Shown here: one piece after another, positions 20,537 through 32,968 of the stretch
Layout of the letters: each line of letters opens with the position of its first letter
Numbering within the stretch: the stretch's first letter is position 1
Origin: Candidatus Thorarchaeota archaeon
GTDB taxonomy: Archaea; Asgardarchaeota; Thorarchaeia; Thorarchaeales; Thorarchaeaceae
Direction of reading: 5' to 3'
Length of the DNA: 47,185 bases
Assembly: GCA_011364905.1 (NCBI GenBank)
Contig: RDNZ01000021.1
Coordinates: 1-47,185 of the forward strand
Notes under the pieces: model-generated
Database searches by the model: none
Told to the model about the DNA's origin: nothing
The model's input: the letters and a program-made list of their open reading frames with translations, nothing else
Made by a program: the position numbers and the translations under genes

Positions 20537-22276
20537 TTATGAGAGGTAGATACTGCGAACCTCACGAATAACGAGACCAAGCAAGTCTTTTGCTGACTTT
20601 ATAGGATAGACTGTTGCGCCTGCGTCTTCGAGCGCTTTCTGAGTTCTACTTTTCTTCTTGGTGCTTCTACCACCGATATGGAACAGGAACAATTCGTGGC
20701 CATTGTTAGACATCTCCTCAACTGAACTAACAAAATCATCCCAATTCGCGATATCCGCATCAGTCATCATAAGAACCATGACTTTCGCCTCAGCCGCTCT
20801 ACAGGTCTCACTGATTTTCCTGACAGGAGCAACAGTGCCACTTCCCTGATAGGCAAGAAGAACACGCTCGGCTTCGCTTTTCGAATTGGACCAAGTGCTC
20901 GCTATGTTGCCACTTGAGAAATTTATTGCAGCCACTCTAGAGCCTCTCTTTAATGCCACTTCCATCGCAGCGAAAGCGGCGACCAGTGCTGTGTGATATG
21001 GTCCCCGTACTGTTCTGTCTGTCATCGCCCAGGTCATTGAACCGCTCGAGTCTATTACAATCAACATGTCAGGGAGTGATTGAAACTGCTGCTGTCCTTC
21101 TGAGTCCATCTTCAGCCATTTGCGCGTTGACAGGTTTGGTATGAGTATTGGGAATGCTTGGAGAGACTGCACAATGTCTAGGTCTTCAACGGGATCACCC
21201 ATCCTCCAGACCTGTGGAGCAAGAGGGGCATCACCTGAGAACTTTCTTTCGTTAACGTCAAAGCGCAACAATCCTCTTGCTTTGGCTCGGTACCAGAATC
21301 GAATCCATGACTCTCTTGGATCCCCATAACCTGCTGTCAGATACACACTTTCAAGATCTTGGAGGTCGCCACCCAGTTGTTCGACTTCTGCCGCCAATTC
21401 TTCCATCTCGGCTTCGGTATCGGTGGGAGTATCGTTCCTGAGACATCTCCTAGCCACGTCACCATTTCTGACCTCAACGGGACTGCCCATTATCGCGTCA
21501 ACATCAAGCGGCACCAAGACAATTGCTTTTTCCTCAGACGTGCCAGTATCGACGTCTTTTTTGGAACGAGTTTTGGCACATCCGAGAAGTTGCTCATTCT
21601 CTTCATCAGGTAGCAATTTAGCAATGATATCAGCGATTTTCTCGCAAGCTTTGGGCCACCGATTCTCATTGTCGATTGATTTCCTGGCTATCTTTGCGAT
21701 TGCTGTTGCGGCTTCCGAAATTTCTTGGTTAACTTTGGCCAATGCGGGGATTGGAAACCCCCACATTGCGCGATAACAGGACACAATCAGTGTCCATAGA
21801 TCACTATGCTCCCGCATTCGCATTGCTGAGTCATGGATTGATTCATTGATACGTCCATGAGTGAGTGACGGGTGTTGCTTGAGGAGCTTGGAGTCGACAA
21901 CCAAATCCGCAAACAAGTTGCACACGAACATAGAAGTAGCATCGTTAACCCGCTTTCGAGCTGAGGAAAACATTAGACCATTGGTCACTCCATCAAAAGG
22001 ACATAGTAGATAATGCTGAATTTCATGATGACAGACTGACCGTAAGTATGGTTCAGCTTCATTGGCATCAAAATGCAACGGAACCCCGGCTATGTTTAGG
22101 TGAACGGTCCAACTCTCTGAATCAATATAGAAGAAACTTGAAGCCTGTTCTATGTTCTCTATCTCTGGCTCCGGAAGCGGAGGGTGATAGAAGTCCATGA
22201 GAGCTTGTTCCCAAGCACGTCTGGCCACGTCCAGAAGCATGTGCCTATCTTTGGCGCTTGCAGACGCTCGGAACAT
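20537..22276 (-). CDS. HExxH metallopeptidase-like + vWA domain protein (MoxR partner)
   Basis: HHEIQH followed by CNLFAD; C-terminal MIDAS DSSGS and MMTDAD. Confidence 0.85.
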   Translation of the reverse strand: MFRASASAKDRHMLLDVARRAWEQALMDFYHPPLPEPEIENIEQASSFFYIDSESWTVHLNIAGVPLHFDANEAEPYLRSVCHHEIQHYLLCPFDGVTNGLMFSSARKRVNDATSMFVCNLFADLVVDSKLLKQHPSLTHGRINESIHDSAMRMREHSDLWTLIVSCYRAMWGFPIPALAKVNQEISEAATAIAKIARKSIDNENRWPKACEKIADIIAKLLPDEENEQLLGCAKTRSKKDVDTGTSEEKAIVLVPLDVDAIMGSPVEVRNGDVARRCLRNDTPTDTEAEMEELAAEVEQLGGDLQDLESVYLTAGYGDPRESWIRFWYRAKARGLLRFDVNERKFSGDAPLAPQVWRMGDPVEDLDIVQSLQAFPILIPNLSTRKWLKMDSEGQQQFQSLPDMLIVIDSSGSMTWAMTDRTVRGPYHTALVAAFAAMEVALKRGSRVAAINFSSGNIASTWSNSKSEAERVLLAYQGSGTVAPVRKISETCRAAEAKVMVLMMTDADIANWDDFVSSVEEMSNNGHELFLFHIGGRSTKKKSRTQKALEDAGATVYPIKSAKDLLGLVIREVRSIYLS

Positions 22277-26341: not shown

Positions 26342-29300
26342 ATGAGCGAAACAAAGGTGAATATCGAGTCGATAAGACTGGGGAATTTCCTGTCCTTCTA
26401 TACAGGGACCGTTGAGTTTGATAAAGGGCTCACCGTATTGGCAGGACCAAATGGCTCTGGCAAGACTTCGATATTTCATGCATTAAAATTCGCACTGGGA
26501 TCGAATCAGAGGGAGAATCGTTATAGTAAATGGAGTGATTTCATCCGTCACGGAGCGAGTACAGCTGAGGTGGAGATTGCTGTTCGAGTGAATGGACAAA
26601 GTCGCAAGTTCTTGAGACGCATTGACAAGGATGGCATCCCTCGTGCATATGCAGATGGAAAGCGTGTAAAGGCTGCTGAGCATAAACAGATGATTAGTGC
26701 ACTAGGTTTGGAAACCGATAATCCTCTCGTCTTTATGCCGCAAGAGAGAATCAATGCTATTCGTGATATGGATCCGTTTGAAGTCAGACGCTTGGTTGAA
26801 GAAGGGACTGGACTCGATATACTTAGAGACCGGATTGGACTTCAAGAAGCGGAGGTGGCACAGAGTAGACAGAAACTCGATGCAGCTCTCGCTGAGTCTA
26901 GAACTGTGGAGAGAGAGCTTGAGTTACTTCAGCATGATTTGTCTCGACTAGAGAGAAAGAGAGCGTTACAGGAACAAGAGAGAGAGTTAGAAGAGGAACT
27001 GAAATGGGCAAGCTTTGATGATTTAACGGAACGAATCCAACAAACAAAAAGTGAGAGTGAAGCAAAAGAGTCCGGGCTTGTCAATGTGCTGGAAGAGCAA
27101 AGTGCATTTGAAGAACAGATTTCAGAGCAAGAGAATGCGCGTACAGAATTGGAAACCAAGTTGTCTGGTCTGCAGACAGAAGTTGGCAGAATTGATGCCA
27201 AAATTGAGGAGGAAGAGAGAAATCTAACAAAGCTCAAAGGAGACTCCAAGAAGTACGTCACTGAACTTCATCAGCTCGAGGGCAACATTAAAGCTGAAAC
27301 GCGAAAAGAAGAGAAGCTAGCGGAAGATCTCGAACGAGTTTCTGCAGCCAGAGAGCAATATATGGATCAGCAAAAATCGCTTCGAGTAGAATTAGCTGAG
27401 CTAGAAGAAGAGCGAACTCGAATACGAGATGAACTCGCTGCATTTGCAGAGTGGAACACAAAGAGAGCTGAAGCTCATGGTCACTACAAGGCACTTCAAG
27501 CGGAGATTGAAGGAAAAGACCTTCTCATGAGGAGCCTCCGCGAACGGCTACAAATTGAGGAAGCGGAACTTCAAGCGATAGAGAGCAAATGGTCGCACTT
27601 GTGGGACAAGATAGAGAACACCGATGCAAAAGAACTGGAAGGGAAGAAGTCACAGTTAGAGCGAGAGATTGCTTCTCTCAATGAAGAAAGATTCAGAAGA
27701 ACGAGTTTAGTGGCGCAACTACAGAAGAATATCGATGATATCAAAATAAGACTCTCTGAAACATCCAAACGAATACCAGAATCTGTCAGAGATTTAAGCG
27801 GTGCAATCGCGGAACACAAATTAGGATCAGTCAAGGGACCCATCATCACTTTATTCACAGCTGATGATAGTCTTTCAGCTGCGATAGAGGGAGTACTTTC
27901 AGGAAACCTTCCATTTGCATTTGTTACTACGGATTATTCTGACTATCAGTTGCTGCTTAAGCTCCGCAATCAAGAAGAGGCACCATCGCCTATCATCTTT
28001 TTGAGAAATGAAAATCATGTAGATAAACCGGTCATGCCTCAGGGGGCAGGAATCGAGGGCTGGTTGTGGGACTTACTCACAGCAGAACCTGAAGCTCAGT
28101 TGCTCCTACGTGAAGTGTTCGGAGATTTCGTTTTGGCAAGAAACTCGCAAACAGCATCTAAAGTCGCAACGAAGCACAATCTGAGAGTAGTAACTAAGAA
28201 TGGATTTGTTACAATACCAGATGACAGTCAGATTGTTAGTCACCCGAAAAGCGAGCCATCTGGTATGGTTTCCACTGCGCCGCTACAAGATAGGATGGAG
28301 AGAATGGAGAAAGAATTGAAAGTTGAACGCCAGCGAGTCACTGAAATCATGACAAAACTCGAAAAGCTCTCAAACGACCGAGAAGAAACATTGGATTTGA
28401 TAAGCCAGATGACCCGTTGGGGGTCCACATGGGAACGTAGGCGGACACTGAATGAGAGCATCCCGGAACTTGAGGAGAGAATAGTATCCATTGATGACGA
28501 GCTGAAGGCTCTGCAGCATAACTATGGAAAAGCTGAGAGAGAGCTCAGAAAGCTTGACAGCACACAACCTCCAGAACGGAGTCGGTTGGTGGGAGAGGAG
28601 TCAGCGATTCGAACAAATTATCGACGCCTTCAGAGCGACTTGACCAAGGTTGACAACAAAGCACATGCATCAGAGAGAGATGAAGAATTCAAACGTCAGG
28701 AATTGAAGAAGGCAAAAGAACTCATCATAATGTATTCTGATAGTCTCACAGATTTGCGTAAAGAAGTCAAAGAATCCAAAGATGCAACCTCTTCAATTCT
28801 CGAGAAGATAGAACTAATGCAAGAAAGCAGAGAGAAGACCGAGAAGTATCAAGCAGAGATAAAAGATGAACTCGCAGAGATTCGGACTAAAACTAGAACG
28901 CTAAGTGAGCGTCTTGTAGAGTTGAACCTTCTCATAAAGAATCGACGACTCGAGGTTCTGCAACTAAAAAGGCAACTGACAAACCTTCAGTATGATCTTG
29001 AAGTGATTGAACAAGAACTACAGGGAAAAACAAGACCAAGGAGCATTCGTGCAATTGATCCAGTCCGAAGTGAGCTTGTGAAATTGCGGCACATACTAGA
29101 TGATTATCAAGATGTTTCAGAAACAGTCGCACATACTGAAAACCTATTGAAAGGCAGACTCGGAGAGCTTGTTGAACGGGTTTCTGAGCTGAGTGAAGAA
29201 CTTGACGAAGCAGAGTCTGCAGTCAGGAACATAAGAGAGCAGTATCATAATGGCATGAATGCAACCCTTCGAAATGTGGAAAAAGGTGTGAATCAAGTAT

Positions 29301-29710
29301 TAGGACGTGTGCAGTTTCCTGGTAGCGTCCAGTTTAGACTTGCCTTGAGAGATGGGAGATATGGGGTTGAGTTCAAGTCGAGGATTAAGACTGAGGGCTT
29401 TGGTGACATCAGTGCTGGTTCTGGTGGCGAAAGGTCACTCATTGCTATTGGCTTGATATTGGCGCTGCAGAAGTTCAATCCGGCCCCGGTCTATGTTATG
29501 GACGAGGTTGACACATTTCTTGATGCTACTAACACCGAACTCGTAAGTCGGCTCTTTCATGACGCCTCACGCCGCAGTCAATTCATAATATTAACACCAG
29601 CTAAGAGCACTCATCTTCTAAAACATGCCGACAAGATACTGGGAGTCGTGTCCCCAAATGGTGTGGACCCCTCGGTGATAATCGAAAGTCCAAAATTCAA
29701 GGCACAATAA
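26342..29710 (+). CDS. smc: SMC ATPase with Smc5/6-like signatures
   Basis: GPNGSGKT; NPLVFMPQE; coiled coils with central hinge; SGGERS; VMDEVDTFLD. Confidence 0.93.
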   Translation: MSETKVNIESIRLGNFLSFYTGTVEFDKGLTVLAGPNGSGKTSIFHALKFALGSNQRENRYSKWSDFIRHGASTAEVEIAVRVNGQSRKFLRRIDKDGIPRAYADGKRVKAAEHKQMISALGLETDNPLVFMPQERINAIRDMDPFEVRRLVEEGTGLDILRDRIGLQEAEVAQSRQKLDAALAESRTVERELELLQHDLSRLERKRALQEQERELEEELKWASFDDLTERIQQTKSESEAKESGLVNVLEEQSAFEEQISEQENARTELETKLSGLQTEVGRIDAKIEEEERNLTKLKGDSKKYVTELHQLEGNIKAETRKEEKLAEDLERVSAAREQYMDQQKSLRVELAELEEERTRIRDELAAFAEWNTKRAEAHGHYKALQAEIEGKDLLMRSLRERLQIEEAELQAIESKWSHLWDKIENTDAKELEGKKSQLEREIASLNEERFRRTSLVAQLQKNIDDIKIRLSETSKRIPESVRDLSGAIAEHKLGSVKGPIITLFTADDSLSAAIEGVLSGNLPFAFVTTDYSDYQLLLKLRNQEEAPSPIIFLRNENHVDKPVMPQGAGIEGWLWDLLTAEPEAQLLLREVFGDFVLARNSQTASKVATKHNLRVVTKNGFVTIPDDSQIVSHPKSEPSGMVSTAPLQDRMERMEKELKVERQRVTEIMTKLEKLSNDREETLDLISQMTRWGSTWERRRTLNESIPELEERIVSIDDELKALQHNYGKAERELRKLDSTQPPERSRLVGEESAIRTNYRRLQSDLTKVDNKAHASERDEEFKRQELKKAKELIIMYSDSLTDLRKEVKESKDATSSILEKIELMQESREKTEKYQAEIKDELAEIRTKTRTLSERLVELNLLIKNRRLEVLQLKRQLTNLQYDLEVIEQELQGKTRPRSIRAIDPVRSELVKLRHILDDYQDVSETVAHTENLLKGRLGELVERVSELSEELDEAESAVRNIREQYHNGMNATLRNVEKGVNQVLGRVQFPGSVQFRLALRDGRYGVEFKSRIKTEGFGDISAGSGGERSLIAIGLILALQKFNPAPVYVMDEVDTFLDATNTELVSRLFHDASRRSQFIILTPAKSTHLLKHADKILGVVSPNGVDPSVIIESPKFKAQ

Positions 29711-29722
29711 GAGTGAATCATC

Positions 29723-30382
29723 ATGAGTGAAAACGAGAGTCTTGTAAGAAGCGTCTTCAACATGGTGCAAGCTGTACGTGCAGGCGAAATTGATCCACTC
29801 GATCTGAAACTAACGCAAGCTTACAAGGATCTCCAAGAGTTAGTTGCCAAGATTGACAGTAAAATCGATATTGATGAGATGCTCAATGAGATTCTCGGCG
29901 ACAAGGTCAATCGGGTTCAGGAACTTGCCAGAATCCTTGCGGCACCGGAGGTGTATGTAGGTCGATTAAAACAGCTGTCGATGAGAGAGTTGGCCAAACT
30001 AATGAAACCGGAGCAACCAGTTGTTATTGGACACCTCGAACACCACTCGCTAGAGGATTCGCTCAATCGAATTGTGACCTTGATCGATGCAATGTCAAGA
30101 GAACCAGCCAAGGAGTCTGTTCCGAGCATTGCATCGCTACCAAATGGATATGCACTTGACACTGAGGATTCTGTCTTTCTAGATGACTTGGAAGAATTCT
30201 TGGCAACAATTCCGGAAGGAGAGAAAATCGGGTTTGATGACTTGATAATGTCTGATGAATTCGACATATTTCTAAGGAGATTCCTCTACGTTGTGATTCT
30301 TGTTTCTAAGGGACGGCTGCATTATGATTCTGTTTCTCGTGTGGTATGGAAACCACTAGTTTCTGAGATTGATACTACGTGA
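29723..30382 (+). CDS. scpA: Kleisin (ScpA-like)
   Basis: GEIDPLDLKL resembles ScpA GEIDPWDIDI; C-terminal winged helix RRFLYVVILVSKGRL; directly after smc. Confidence 0.72.
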   Translation: MSENESLVRSVFNMVQAVRAGEIDPLDLKLTQAYKDLQELVAKIDSKIDIDEMLNEILGDKVNRVQELARILAAPEVYVGRLKQLSMRELAKLMKPEQPVVIGHLEHHSLEDSLNRIVTLIDAMSREPAKESVPSIASLPNGYALDTEDSVFLDDLEEFLATIPEGEKIGFDDLIMSDEFDIFLRRFLYVVILVSKGRLHYDSVSRVVWKPLVSEIDTT

Positions 30383-30410: not shown

Positions 30411-31751
30411 TTAAACAGGAACCTCAACTGCAATCTCGGGTAATTCGATTTCCTCTTCGGGTTGTTCACTCTCTAACTTACTATGGAGATTAAGTTTAGC
30501 CACAGCAAAGAATCCAAGAACTGAAACCAGGACAAGGGCGAAAGCAGCTCCTATCATTGGAGGACCAGTGGATGCAGCAGCTTCAGCCCAAACGCCGCCT
30601 ATCCCCATGCCCACGACCTGTACGGCAGTGAAGACAACGTTGAGCAACGCAAACACACGGCCGCGCAGTTCATCCCGTACTAGTTGCTGCAAAAGGACTG
30701 TGAGGGGGATATCTAGTATAACATCCACAGAACCGATCATGGCCCACGACAGCATAACTGTTACAAGATCGAATGCCAGGACCATGAAGAAGACTGCAAC
30801 TCCTGCAAGGATACCAGCCCCAGCAATGAGATATAGTGGTTTGTTGATTTTGGTCTTCCGACTGAAATACAATGCAGCAGCTGCCCCAGATGCTGCTCCT
30901 GCACTCAAAACCAGTCCGATTTGTGTAGCCCCCAGGGCAAGCTCACCTTCAAGGTAGGGTATGAAGAGAGCATTTAGAATACCAGAAGAAACGGCAAGAA
31001 GCATTGCAAATACAAATAGGAAAGAGAGTATCGAATTTCCGATTACGAATTTGGCTCCCTCTTTTATCTGCATCATGAGTGACTCTTTACTCTGAAGGTC
31101 GTGATCAGGAACAAGATCAGTGGCAATCATACTGAGTGCAAGCGCTGAGAAGACAAATGATGCAGAGTTGATTGCAAATGCTGGAAGATAATTCGGTGCA
31201 AGGAGTGCAACAAGGATACCACCAACTGGAGGGACAACTAACTGAACAACTTGGAATGTCATCTGAGATAGAGAGTTGGCTACTACTAGCTCATCACCCT
31301 CAACAAGATTGGGGATTGCTGCACTCCTTGCTGGAAAGAACCAAGCATTAGCGGTGGCATAAACAAAAGTGAGGAGGTACACCCAGTAGATTGCGGGGAA
31401 GAAGGTAGGAAAGTACTCTGTCAAAGGTATTAGAATAATGACGGTTGCACGCGTGATATCGGAGGCAACCATAATCGTCTTGCGATTCCAACGATCAATA
31501 TACACACCAATTGGACCTGCAAATGCAACCACTGGAATAGTCTGAGCCATTGCTAGTATTGCCATAGCCATTGGAGATTGTGTCAGGTCGAAAGCATAGA
31601 ACATGAGTGCCAGAGTAGCAATTGCTGTGCCAATGTTTGAAACCAATTGACCAGACCAAAGAAGTGAGAAGTCTCGATGAGTTAGAACTGATCGGAGTCC
31701 TTTGGATTCACCACTATCCTCGAGTCCTTGAGAGGTGACAGCCTCAGTCAT
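30411..31751 (-). CDS. MFS exporter (DHA3/MefA-EntS-like)
   Basis: DFSLLWSGQLVS, GVYIDRWNRK and ELRGRVF motifs; about 12 TM segments. Confidence 0.92.
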   Translation of the reverse strand: MTEAVTSQGLEDSGESKGLRSVLTHRDFSLLWSGQLVSNIGTAIATLALMFYAFDLTQSPMAMAILAMAQTIPVVAFAGPIGVYIDRWNRKTIMVASDITRATVIILIPLTEYFPTFFPAIYWVYLLTFVYATANAWFFPARSAAIPNLVEGDELVVANSLSQMTFQVVQLVVPPVGGILVALLAPNYLPAFAINSASFVFSALALSMIATDLVPDHDLQSKESLMMQIKEGAKFVIGNSILSFLFVFAMLLAVSSGILNALFIPYLEGELALGATQIGLVLSAGAASGAAAALYFSRKTKINKPLYLIAGAGILAGVAVFFMVLAFDLVTVMLSWAMIGSVDVILDIPLTVLLQQLVRDELRGRVFALLNVVFTAVQVVGMGIGGVWAEAAASTGPPMIGAAFALVLVSVLGFFAVAKLNLHSKLESEQPEEEIELPEIAVEVPV

Positions 31752-31756
31752 TCATT

Positions 31757-31855
31757 TCATCTCCTGAAATAGTTACGAGCCAAGGCATCAGTGGTTTGCA
31801 CTGACTTGGCTTCTCTCCATACGCGAGGTTTCCCATCGATTTTCGCTAGAGCCAT
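31757..31855 (-). CDS. Small peptide C, MALAKIDGKPRVWREAKSVQTTDALARNYFRR (32 aa)
   Basis: Hand-translated; SD AGGTGA overlaps the upstream stop; ends 5 nt before the MFS ATG; similar to peptides A and B. Confidence 0.72.
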   Translation of the reverse strand: MALAKIDGKPRVWREAKSVQTTDALARNYFRR

Positions 31856-31860
31856 GTTCT

Positions 31861-31971
31861 TCACCTTTGTACTGTCATGTACGCGTATGCGAGTGCTTCC
31901 GCTGTTTGCACATGCGCAAATACAGTTTCATCAAAATGACGAGCCATTCGACGATCATTAGTTTGTTTCAT
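31861..31971 (-). CDS. Small peptide B, MKQTNDRRMARHFDETVFAHVQTAEALAYAYMTVQR (36 aa)
   Basis: Hand-translated; C-terminus AL.YAY.TV.R matches peptide A. Confidence 0.72.
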   Translation of the reverse strand: MKQTNDRRMARHFDETVFAHVQTAEALAYAYMTVQR

Positions 31972-32114
31972 TTTCTTTCACACATTCCAATAGATTGGTC
32001 ACAGGATATGCTGCTTCTGAGAAGAACTGACCACATCTCTGACCACTCCGTGACCACGAGAGTCACCATCGGGTCTGAGCAGGGCCAAATCGAGTTTCTC
32101 AGAGAATTATTCAA
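31968..32114 (-). CDS. Possible 48-aa ORF (TTG start), MNNSLRNSIWPCSDPMVTLVVTEWSEMWSVLLRSSISCDQSIGMCERK
   Basis: Starts 5 nt after the peptide A stop; its TGA overlaps the peptide B ATG (ATGA); lacks the shared motif. Confidence 0.35.
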   Translation of the reverse strand: MNNSLRNSIWPCSDPMVTLVVTEWSEMWSVLLRSSISCDQSIGMCERK

Positions 32115-32119
32115 ACACT

Positions 32120-32224
32120 TCACCGCACAACTGTAAGGTAAGCGTAAGAGAGTGCGTCAGTGCTTGCGACTGACTTCTTGTTCTTCAAAACAGATGTTGT
32201 TCGTGAGTTAGTTGTTAGAGCCAT
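32120..32224 (-). CDS. Small peptide A, MALTTNSRTTSVLKNKKSVASTDALSYAYLTVVR (34 aa)
   Basis: Hand-translated; TATA box upstream; similar to peptides B and C. Confidence 0.72.
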   Translation of the reverse strand: MALTTNSRTTSVLKNKKSVASTDALSYAYLTVVR

Positions 32225-32256
32225 GATATTTCACAAGAATTAGTATTCAGATTCAG

Positions 32257-32311
32257 TATATATAGCGAAGCCACTTGTGAGGGTCACCAGAGGGAGTCAC
32301 ATCTTGTGACT
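32257..32311 (-). promoter_or_regulatory. TATA box (32257-32264) and 7-3-7 palindrome (32295-32311)
   Basis: TATATATA about 33 nt upstream of the peptide A ATG; AGTCACA-TCT-TGTGACT. Confidence 0.6.
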
Positions 32312-32554
32312 AGGTGAATGGATAAATGATAAGATAGGAAATTCGTCTGTGGAGTGTATTTCCAAAGCAGACAGAGCTGCCAGCTTATTACTTGTTCATT
32401 AATGATGGCTAAAGCAGGAAGAGAGGAACTATTCTCCTTGAAGTCGGTCGTTCATATCAATATCAACTGCTAAGTAGAATGACATTCTTATCTCAAAGGT
32501 TATATGATAATTAACTATAGTTATTATTCAAATAGAGTATTGGAGACATCATTG

Positions 32555-32968
32555 ATGCAAGACTTCATCAAACAACTGGCTGATGCTCCGAGTGAAAAGA
32601 GAATTCAGGCAATCAATGAACGCTTGAAAGCCCTAATAGCTCAGAGTGAGTCAGAAAGAATTGAAACGATGAAAGGGTTAGTCATGTCTGTGTCTGAACT
32701 ACCTGAGAGTAAGAAGGCACAGTTCATTTCTGATCGTACGTTGTGCATATCACAACTGCCCACCACTCAAATGGCGGCCATCATGAAATCAAGAGCTAAG
32801 CTCTCATCGCTCATCCCGACAGATGTGAATGAGGCGGACATGAAACAGACATTCATGGTCCTGAAGCAGTGGCCAGAGGAAAAACGCAATACATTCATTC
32901 ATGAGATCAAACAAGCATATGAGATTGCGAATGTCAAATTTCCTGCAATGGAAGCAGCCATGAGCTAG
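32555..32968 (+). CDS. Hypothetical all-helical protein
   Basis: ORF from MQDFIK; recurring LP..(K/R) helical units; followed by a terminator. Confidence 0.75.
   Translation: MQDFIKQLADAPSEKRIQAINERLKALIAQSESERIETMKGLVMSVSELPESKKAQFISDRTLCISQLPTTQMAAIMKSRAKLSSLIPTDVNEADMKQTFMVLKQWPEEKRNTFIHEIKQAYEIANVKFPAMEAAMS

Follow-up and report, generated by a model that had tools for sequence, protein, structure and literature searches.

The SMC gene and its operon

We analyzed a stretch of 47,185 nucleotides (hereafter the window) from a Candidatus Thorarchaeota archaeon, contig RDNZ01000021.1 of the assembly GCA_011364905.1 (3.08 Mb in 95 contigs, 81% complete). Its proteins have their nearest database matches in entries named Candidatus Thorarchaeota or Promethearchaeota. 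The window encodes a divergent structural maintenance of chromosomes (SMC) ATPase, followed directly by a predicted kleisin and, further downstream, by a predicted kite subunit, all on the same strand (Table 1). An earlier note on this DNA, made from the letters of the sequence, had described the first two genes as an Smc5/6-like SMC, presumably homodimeric, with its own kleisin.

The product of the SMC gene is covered by the Pfam model SMC_N over residues 8-1104 (E 3.1e-39) and by SMC_hinge over residues 497-608 (31.8 bits for a cut-off of 22.5). It aligns end-to-end with TIGR02169, the archaeal SMC model of NCBIfam (model positions 2-1156), at 290.2 bits for a cut-off of 729.4. The domain layout comprises an N-terminal head (residues ~1-170), a hinge (~495-650) and a C-terminal head (~940-1122), and every one of the motifs quoted in the earlier note (Q-loop, signature, D-loop and hinge segments) was located in the protein. 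The elements of the ATPase site, i.e., Walker A, Gln134, the SGG of the signature, the DE of Walker B and the Asp of the D-loop, are intact. In an alignment with its counterparts from similar operons (operon-type SMCs, see below), the SGG, the DE and the D-loop Asp are invariant across 19 rows, and the Walker A pattern G-x-N-x-x-GK[TS] is retained in all 17 of these rows that cover it. Since all its catalytic motifs are intact, the protein is expected to be an active ATPase. The position of the H-loop is occupied by Pro1086 (QFIILTP). The protein thus carries the marks of an SMC sensu stricto, which are a split ABC-type head, a central hinge flanked by long coiled-coil arms, and a dedicated, here predicted, kleisin partner.

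Table 1. Position of the genes, motifs and insertion discussed in the text, numbered along the window.
Feature	Nucleotides	Strand	Residues	Remarks
VWA protein with HExxH motif, 579 amino acids (aa)	20537..22276	-		divergent neighbour of the operon
MoxR-like AAA protein, 572 aa	22283..24001	-		divergent neighbour of the operon
Cdc48/p97-like single-AAA protein, 357 aa	25268..26341	+		PF00004; TAG stop abuts the ATG of the SMC gene
Divergent SMC ATPase, 1122 aa	26342..29710	+		complete open reading frame (ORF); zero cysteines
SMC, Walker A GPNGSGKT	26444-26467		35-42	
SMC, Q-loop NPLVFMPQERI	26720-26752		127-137	includes Gln134
SMC, hinge GPIITLFTADD...AIEGVL...AFVTTDYSDY	27836-27946		499-535	
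SMC, signature SGGERS	29420-29437		1027-1032	
SMC, Walker B/D-loop DEVDTFLD	29501-29524		1054-1061	
Predicted kleisin, 219 aa	29723..30382	+		12-nt spacer after the SMC stop TAA
Genus-specific insertion	30411-32968			MFS transporter (30411..31751, - strand), small ORFs, 154-aa helical ORF
Predicted kite subunit, 172 aa, tandem winged helix	33137..33655	+		from synteny and fold
TFIIB-type zinc ribbon and winged-helix protein, 123 aa	33707..34078	+		PF08271, E 6.6e-8

We compared the neighbourhoods of 10 Thorarchaeial orthologue loci and of 9 loci of other Asgard families that were located via their kite. The loci counted as operon-type number 18, namely the 10 Thorarchaeial ones (L009-L018) and 8 others (L049-L054, L056, L057). 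In Thorarchaeia, the gene order is an AAA-like gene (~357 aa), the SMC, the 219-aa kleisin, the 172-aa kite and, last, the 123-aa protein, which combines a zinc ribbon with a winged helix. The core order AAA-like/SMC/kleisin/kite is repeated in the 8 other loci, which come from four Asgard families and whose genes encode proteins of 276-481, 835-1177, 190-256 and 152-224 aa, respectively. The metagenome-assembled genomes concerned are labelled by NCBI as Jordarchaeales, Lokiarchaeia/Promethearchaeia, Hodarchaeota and Hermodarchaeota. Kleisin and kite genes lie side by side or overlap in other Thorarchaeial genera, whereas in the genus of the window they are parted by an insertion of 2.75 kb, hence the non-adjacent kite of this genus. 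The kite is present in 62 of the 64 near-complete genomes of one other Asgard class, and the operon shows the behaviour of a core gene.

The 219-aa gene lies directly after the SMC gene and ahead of the kite in 18 out of 18 operon-type loci. The members of its family are all annotated as hypothetical. Neither this protein nor the 172-aa kite has any match in scans of Pfam and NCBIfam, PDB searches with the single 219-aa sequence or with a small profile gave nothing significant, and the Pfam ScpA model matched none of the genes of the window in a search of the whole genome. The Thorarchaeial family can be aligned with the proteins at the same position in the other Asgard groups over 201 columns (hhalign probability 98.6%, E 9e-16). 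Its AlphaFold2 model consists of N-terminal helices, a low-confidence linker (residues 130-148) and a C-terminal winged helix (~150-211), the latter with a pLDDT (predicted score in the local distance difference test) of ~80. The first match of this model in Foldseek is the C-terminal winged-helix domain of Pyrococcus ScpA bound to the Smc head (4i99_C), and the list also holds chains of the yeast Smc5/6 complex, the C-terminal part of B. subtilis ScpA and that of Scc1. Ranks 2 and 3 are taken by chains of the Smc5/6 complex (7qcd_F and 7tve_G), but with a root-mean-square deviation (rmsd) >20. VIA-align also puts 4i99_C first (Z 7.7, rmsd 2.1 Å over 61 aa, 28% identity), and the C-terminal winged helix of 8t8f_G obtains a Z of 6.5, tied with unrelated winged helices. 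When a profile of 24 sequences of the family is used, the two best PDB matches are ScpA C-terminal domains (E 0.0059 and 0.012), over the segment FLY..L...G; the match of the family profile to the genome's own ScpA is weak (hhalign probability 15%). While none is decisive singly, position, architecture and similarity jointly make it reasonably safe to regard the 219-aa protein as a kleisin.

The model of the 172-aa protein (pLDDT 88) has two winged-helix domains, and nearly all its Foldseek matches are kites: ScpB (3e-5), JetB, MAGE-A3 (1.7e-4), MAGE-G1/Nse1, Nse1-Nse3-Nse4 and MukE. The matches to the MAGE/Nse1/Nse3 fold (E 1.7e-4 to 6.6e-4) are about level with the one to ScpB, and the modelled fold does not separate a ScpB-like from an Nse1/3-like kite. 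A kite profile searched against 1.84 billion representative proteins retrieved 86 relatives, all but two of them shorter than 235 aa.

Canonical Smc and affinity to Smc5/6

A separate canonical smc gene, which the earlier note had suggested looking for, is present in the genome. TIGR02169, searched against the whole genome, gave a second strong match at the start of another contig (C84), corresponding to the C-terminal head of a canonical Smc (281.6 bits over 216 model positions, with SGGEKT and DEIDAALD). After this gene come a ScpA-like gene (241 aa) and then a ScpB gene (191 aa), the latter with 116.5 bits on the Pfam model SMC_ScpB. The Pfam model SMC_ScpA misses this canonical ScpA (C84:699-1424) in the whole-genome search, even at E<=1, and the archaeal kleisins of this lineage are generally invisible to that standard model. 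The same pairing occurs elsewhere: most of 41 Thorarchaeial genomes carry an orthologue of the window SMC (29-84% identity, 1122-1145 aa) plus a canonical Smc of ~1200 aa that is ~25% identical to the window SMC. On TIGR02169, the canonical Smc of related Asgard genomes reaches 790-940 bits. The window SMC is thus a second paralogue, separate from the canonical Smc. There is one operon-type SMC gene per genome, which fits the idea of a homodimer put forward earlier.

Other SMC genes were observed in the course of these searches. Some Asgard genomes have a third paralogue of ~1480 aa, with an unalignable hinge region, that groups with the canonical clade (G161:C2:363986-368365; G118:C6:15086-19471). 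In 41 near-complete genomes of one family (f9; genera g24, g43, g31 and g52) no SMC was found with the canonical model at E 1e-200, and nearly all the genomes of these genera that were searched with the kite profile carry an operon-type kite. Canonical Smc may be absent from these genera or present only in a divergent form. Finally, a 446-aa ORF (G000:C25:147311-148132) matches the N-terminal head of the SMC model alone, with 62 bits, and other Thorarchaeial genomes repeatedly encode similar proteins (428-465 aa).

The relation between the two types of SMC was analyzed with a Rad50-rooted tree of 38 Asgard sequences, computed from heads and hinge (498 columns) by maximum likelihood under LG+C20 with posterior mean site frequencies (PMSF) and a quick search. 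All 19 operon-type SMCs fall in one clade (support of 89 in the Shimodaira-Hasegawa-like approximate likelihood ratio test, SH-aLRT), sister to a clade (96*) that includes all canonical Smc, the ~1480-aa paralogue and a Borrarchaeum SMC. Within this Asgard sampling, the window SMC is therefore not nested inside canonical archaeal Smc, the placement that the earlier note had named as the one incompatible with its proposal. The branching inside the operon-type clade broadly mirrors that of the canonical clade, and this parallel suggests an old duplication followed by vertical descent.

The locus of the Borrarchaeum SMC (L055, G077:C7), at first regarded as operon-type, was set aside: on TIGR02169 its SMC reaches 597 bits, and in the tree it takes a basal position on the canonical side. 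This protein, which remains below the cut-off of the model, is a mosaic with a canonical-like Walker A and Q-loop, but with the TP of the operon type in its H-loop. An AAA gene is found upstream of it and a weakly matching kite downstream, and no other full-length SMC was found in this genome.

We then compared motifs in a joint alignment of 19 operon-type and 14 canonical Asgard Smc. The hinge motif G-x6-G-x3-GG is absent from 19 of the 19 operon-type proteins; among canonical copies, it (e.g., GDLVERSGLITGG) is present in those of Thorarchaeia and of Jordarchaeales/family f19 and degenerate in the other two. The glycine-poor hinge pointed out in the earlier note is therefore a family-wide difference from canonical Smc. 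The rest of its motif case for Smc5/6 is weaker. The PQE Q-loop is specific to a lineage, being confined to most Thorarchaeia, with QG in two Thorarchaeial orthologues, in Jordarchaeales and in the other families. The FLD ending of the D-loop is also found in the canonical Smc of Jordarchaeales and family f19, and SGGER occurs in Rad50 too. One trait absent from that argument, the H-loop proline (QF..TP/LP/MP/VP), is family-wide among operon-type SMCs. Smc5 and Smc6 carry a proline there too.

The conclusion of the earlier note on Smc5/6 is better supported than its motif reasoning. We scored a profile of 18 operon-type sequences and one of 14 canonical Asgard sequences against solved structures in the PDB. 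Smc5 obtained 169.5 bits with the operon-type profile and was not among the best 60 matches listed for the canonical one (<85 bits), while Smc6 obtained 148.8 and 92.2 bits, respectively. Scores for the other eukaryotic proteins were 240 bits with the operon-type and 472 bits with the canonical profile for Smc3, 239 and 476 for Smc2, 209 and 494 for Smc4, and 161 and 418 for Smc1. Relative to the canonical profile, the operon-type profile scores Smc5/6 around twice as well and Smc1-4 around half as well, bearing in mind that these values are an argument from similarity and no phylogeny, and that the composition of the coiled coils may contribute to them. Such a pattern is expected if operon-type SMCs go with Smc5/6 and canonical ones with Smc1-4, and a faster evolutionary rate alone would not give it. 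Among the nearest named neighbours of a 96%-identical homologue in the ESM Atlas, the eukaryotic clusters are called 'SMC6 family', 'Rad50/SbcC-type' and 'putative SMC' (green algae), and none is named Smc1-4; we regard this as a lead only. Together, the profile scores and the language-model lead support the view that, relative to canonical Asgard Smc, the operon-type SMC has more affinity to Smc5/6, in line with the kinship initially proposed.

Published relatives and alternative explanations

The existence of such complexes was already published in 2021 and 2024/25 (PMC8665677; 10.1101/2024.01.07.573240), as the earlier note had mentioned for the SMC proteins. Yoshinaga and Inagaki 2021 described an 'SMC5/6-related aSMC' group that falls with Smc5/6 and often occurs beside canonical aSMC (PMC8665677). 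Operons of SMC5/6-related SMC, kleisin and kite are known beside canonical ones in TACK and Asgard archaea (PMC8665677; bioRxiv 10.1101/2024.01.07.573240). The table of van Hooff et al. gives, for Jordarchaeum madagascariense, an SMC5/6-related SMC adjacent to an Nse4-related kleisin and an Nse1/3-related kite (10.1101/2024.01.07.573240). In the Jordarchaeales genome that we searched, there is exactly one non-canonical SMC, which is the operon-type one. For one Thorarchaeon, the same authors list SMC5/6-related SMCs, one non-adjacent Nse1/3-related kite and no Nse4-related kleisin (10.1101/2024.01.07.573240). This entry agrees with the present locus if one takes into account that the kleisin is divergent and that an insertion is present.

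The system of the window resembles these archaeal SMC5/6-related complexes by its second SMC beside Smc-ScpAB, its own operon of SMC, kleisin and kite, its presumed homodimeric state and its relative affinity to Smc5/6. It adds three points to them: the Thorarchaeial kleisin, which the published survey had not detected, the reason for the non-adjacent kite in this genus, and a Cdc48-like pseudo-ATPase gene that always travels with the operon. With eukaryotic Smc5/6 it shares the association of SMC, short kleisin and kite, the glycine-poor hinge and arms shorter than those of the condensin type (1122 vs ~1200 aa). However, it has one SMC gene, hence a presumed homodimer instead of a heterodimer, one kite gene and no RING on the kite, and no candidate for Nse2 or Nse5/6 was seen in the operon (a genome-wide search was not made). 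Finally, canonical Smc-ScpA-ScpB has the same three-part architecture and gene order, and provides the best matches for both the C-terminal domain of the kleisin (Pyrococcus ScpA) and the fold of the kite (ScpB). The window SMC differs from the canonical one by its score on TIGR02169 (290 bits for a cut-off of 729), the ~25% identity, the lack of G-x6-G-x3-GG, the separate clade, PQE instead of QG in the Q-loop, and Pro at the H-loop.

We consider that the locus encodes the motor and the bridging subunit of a second SMC complex that belongs to the archaeal SMC5/6-related lineage and serves specialised genome maintenance, with a probability of about 0.7. A number of observations weigh against this reading. 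The affinity to Smc5/6 is indirectly supported, by relative profile scores, the language-model lead and the literature, and our tree is Asgard-only. In absolute terms, the window SMC is more similar to Smc2/3 and to archaeal Smc heads than to Smc5/6. As judged from sequence, the kleisin and the kite appear connected to ScpA and ScpB, respectively, and no such link is seen with Nse4 or Nse1/3: ScpA C-terminal domains are the sole sequence matches of the kleisin profile, Pfam Nse4_C has no match anywhere in the genome at E<=10, and the Pfam models MAGE and SMC_Nse1 do not match any gene of the window in the whole-genome search. Of the earlier proposal of a ScpA/Nse4-type kleisin, we thus retain the kleisin itself, on context, fold and a marginal profile match, and the link to ScpA, but not the one to Nse4. 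None of the 86 kite relatives is as long as eukaryotic Nse1, Nse3 or MAGE proteins, nor is any MAGE or Nse1 family among the 25 Pfam families listed for them, while Pfam ScpB is found in 15 of the 57 that were scanned and one close member passes its gathering score. The overall pLDDT of the kleisin model is low (63), and many unrelated winged helices are within one Z unit of 4i99_C when its C-terminal domain is compared by VIA-align. Lastly, the published cluster of Prometheoarchaeum syntrophicum (genes 495-497) was not located among the genomes searched, so that the tie between the two families is an indirect one.

Part of these data would suit an old, fast-evolving duplicate of archaeal Smc-ScpA-ScpB with no specific kinship to Smc5/6, whose distinctive features would be ancestral or convergent. 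The gradation of the kite family into ScpB, the restriction of the kleisin matches to ScpA, the higher absolute similarity to Smc2/3 and the 'Smc5/6-like' motifs that turned out not to be family-wide all point that way, and the monophyly of all eukaryotic SMCs was not rejected in the analysis of van Hooff et al. (p-AU, the p-value of the approximately unbiased test, 0.317; 10.1101/2024.01.07.573240). We nevertheless find this explanation unlikely. Speed alone would not produce opposite shifts in the scores of Smc5/Smc6 and Smc1-4, archaeal SMCs of this kind group with Smc5/6 in two independent published phylogenies, and the H-loop proline, which also occurs in Smc5/6, is invariant in the operon-type clade.

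Two other explanations were weighed. Since episomal and viral DNA are restricted by Smc5/6 in eukaryotes, and since Wadjet consists of an SMC, a kleisin and a kite, a defence system against plasmids or viruses in the manner of Wadjet/JetABCD, MksBEFG or Lamassu comes to mind. The window has in common with Wadjet and MksBEFG an SMC, a kleisin and a kite in one operon, as well as a kite model that matches JetB and MukE, and PADLOC gives weak matches of the SMC to LmuB and mad3. However, these SMC matches are of the generic ABC-ATPase kind, and PADLOC gives nothing meaningful for the kleisin, for the kite or for the AAA-like, MoxR and VWA proteins. No nuclease of the JetD/MksG/LmuA kind is found in the operon or its conserved neighbourhood. 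The neighbourhood is fixed across the whole class, the system is near-universal in complete genomes and its phylogeny broadly parallels that of canonical Smc, a core-genome behaviour that differs from that of defence islands and makes a defence role very unlikely. Even harder to defend is the idea that the protein is no true SMC but of the Rad50/SbcC type or an archaea-specific SMC-related protein (ASRP, ClsN or arcadin-4 type). The NCBIfam matches that could suggest so, 139.6 bits for ASRP and 47-81 bits for Rad50 models, are far under the cut-offs (300-1087, and 700 or more for the Rad50 models), whereas the hinge scores above the Pfam cut-off and the SMC model aligns end-to-end. Since the window SMC lacks cysteine, it has no CxxC zinc hook, and in place of Mre11 its predicted partners are a kleisin and a kite.

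Neighbouring genes and proposed function

The AAA-like gene is immediately 5' of the SMC gene in 18 of the 18 operon-type loci. The profile of its product matches the D2 AAA domain of Cdc48/p97/VAT (E ~1e-51). In the window, the Walker A is degenerate (GPPGTDF, with no Lys) and the Walker B reads YVEK. In an alignment of 20 family members, Walker A is GPxGTDF, with no lysine, in Thorarchaeia, and an intact GxGKT in some members from outside Thorarchaeia, while the acidic pair of Walker B is conserved nowhere. A C-terminal domain of ~80 aa is conserved across Asgard families and has no match. The upstream Cdc48-like gene goes unmentioned in van Hooff et al. (bioRxiv 10.1101/2024.01.07.573240), and nothing about the locus is more novel than its linkage to the SMC across families. 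If one speculates from gene linkage alone, the AAA-like protein is probably a dedicated regulator or loader. A more specific and more tentative proposal, which we see as somewhat less than an even bet, is that it is an undescribed dedicated subunit, linked in Thorarchaeia and Jordarchaeales to the MoxR-VWA pair. It might act as a loader, an unloader or a regulator of the ATPase, in a role analogous to that of Nse5/6 while being evolutionarily unrelated to them.

Other genes accompany the operon more narrowly. The 123-aa zinc-ribbon protein is encoded directly after the kite in 10 out of 10 Thorarchaeial loci (48-87% identity), and no counterpart was observed in the loci compared from other Asgard families. 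Its membership in the complex is uncertain, a role as additional subunit or as regulator being conceivable. The MoxR-like gene is divergently upstream of the operon in 10 of the 10 Thorarchaeial loci and is accompanied by the VWA gene in 9. In the Jordarchaeales locus L051 (38-3266), both genes are directly upstream on the same strand with overlapping ends, as if in a six-gene operon. A functional link between this pair and the operon is uncertain. RNA evidence is too thin for a claim of expression or co-transcription: a single mangrove metatranscriptome provides two perfect short contigs, of which one spans the SMC-kleisin junction with only 28 nt on the SMC side.

Given a single gene for each of the SMC, the kleisin and the kite, the complex is most simply modelled as a homodimeric ring like that of Smc-ScpAB. 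Two copies of the SMC would dimerise via their hinges, and the kleisin would close the ring by placing its N-terminal helices on the neck of one SMC and its C-terminal winged-helix domain on the head of the other. A dimer of the kite would sit on the middle part of the kleisin. Binding and hydrolysis of ATP could then drive DNA entrapment or loop extrusion. Considering that nearly all these genomes retain canonical Smc-ScpAB, the most likely role of the second complex is specialised genome maintenance, such as repair, the handling of replication-associated DNA junctions or local organisation, and not bulk folding.

Smc5/6 is the least understood eukaryotic SMC complex, and eukaryotes have their closest known relatives in Asgard archaea. 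A simple homodimeric relative in these archaea would thus be a tractable model for the core mechanism of Smc5/6 and for the diversification of SMC complexes before eukaryotes. If the role proposed for the AAA-like protein is true, an AAA-type remodeller would have controlled the archaeal ancestor of Smc5/6.

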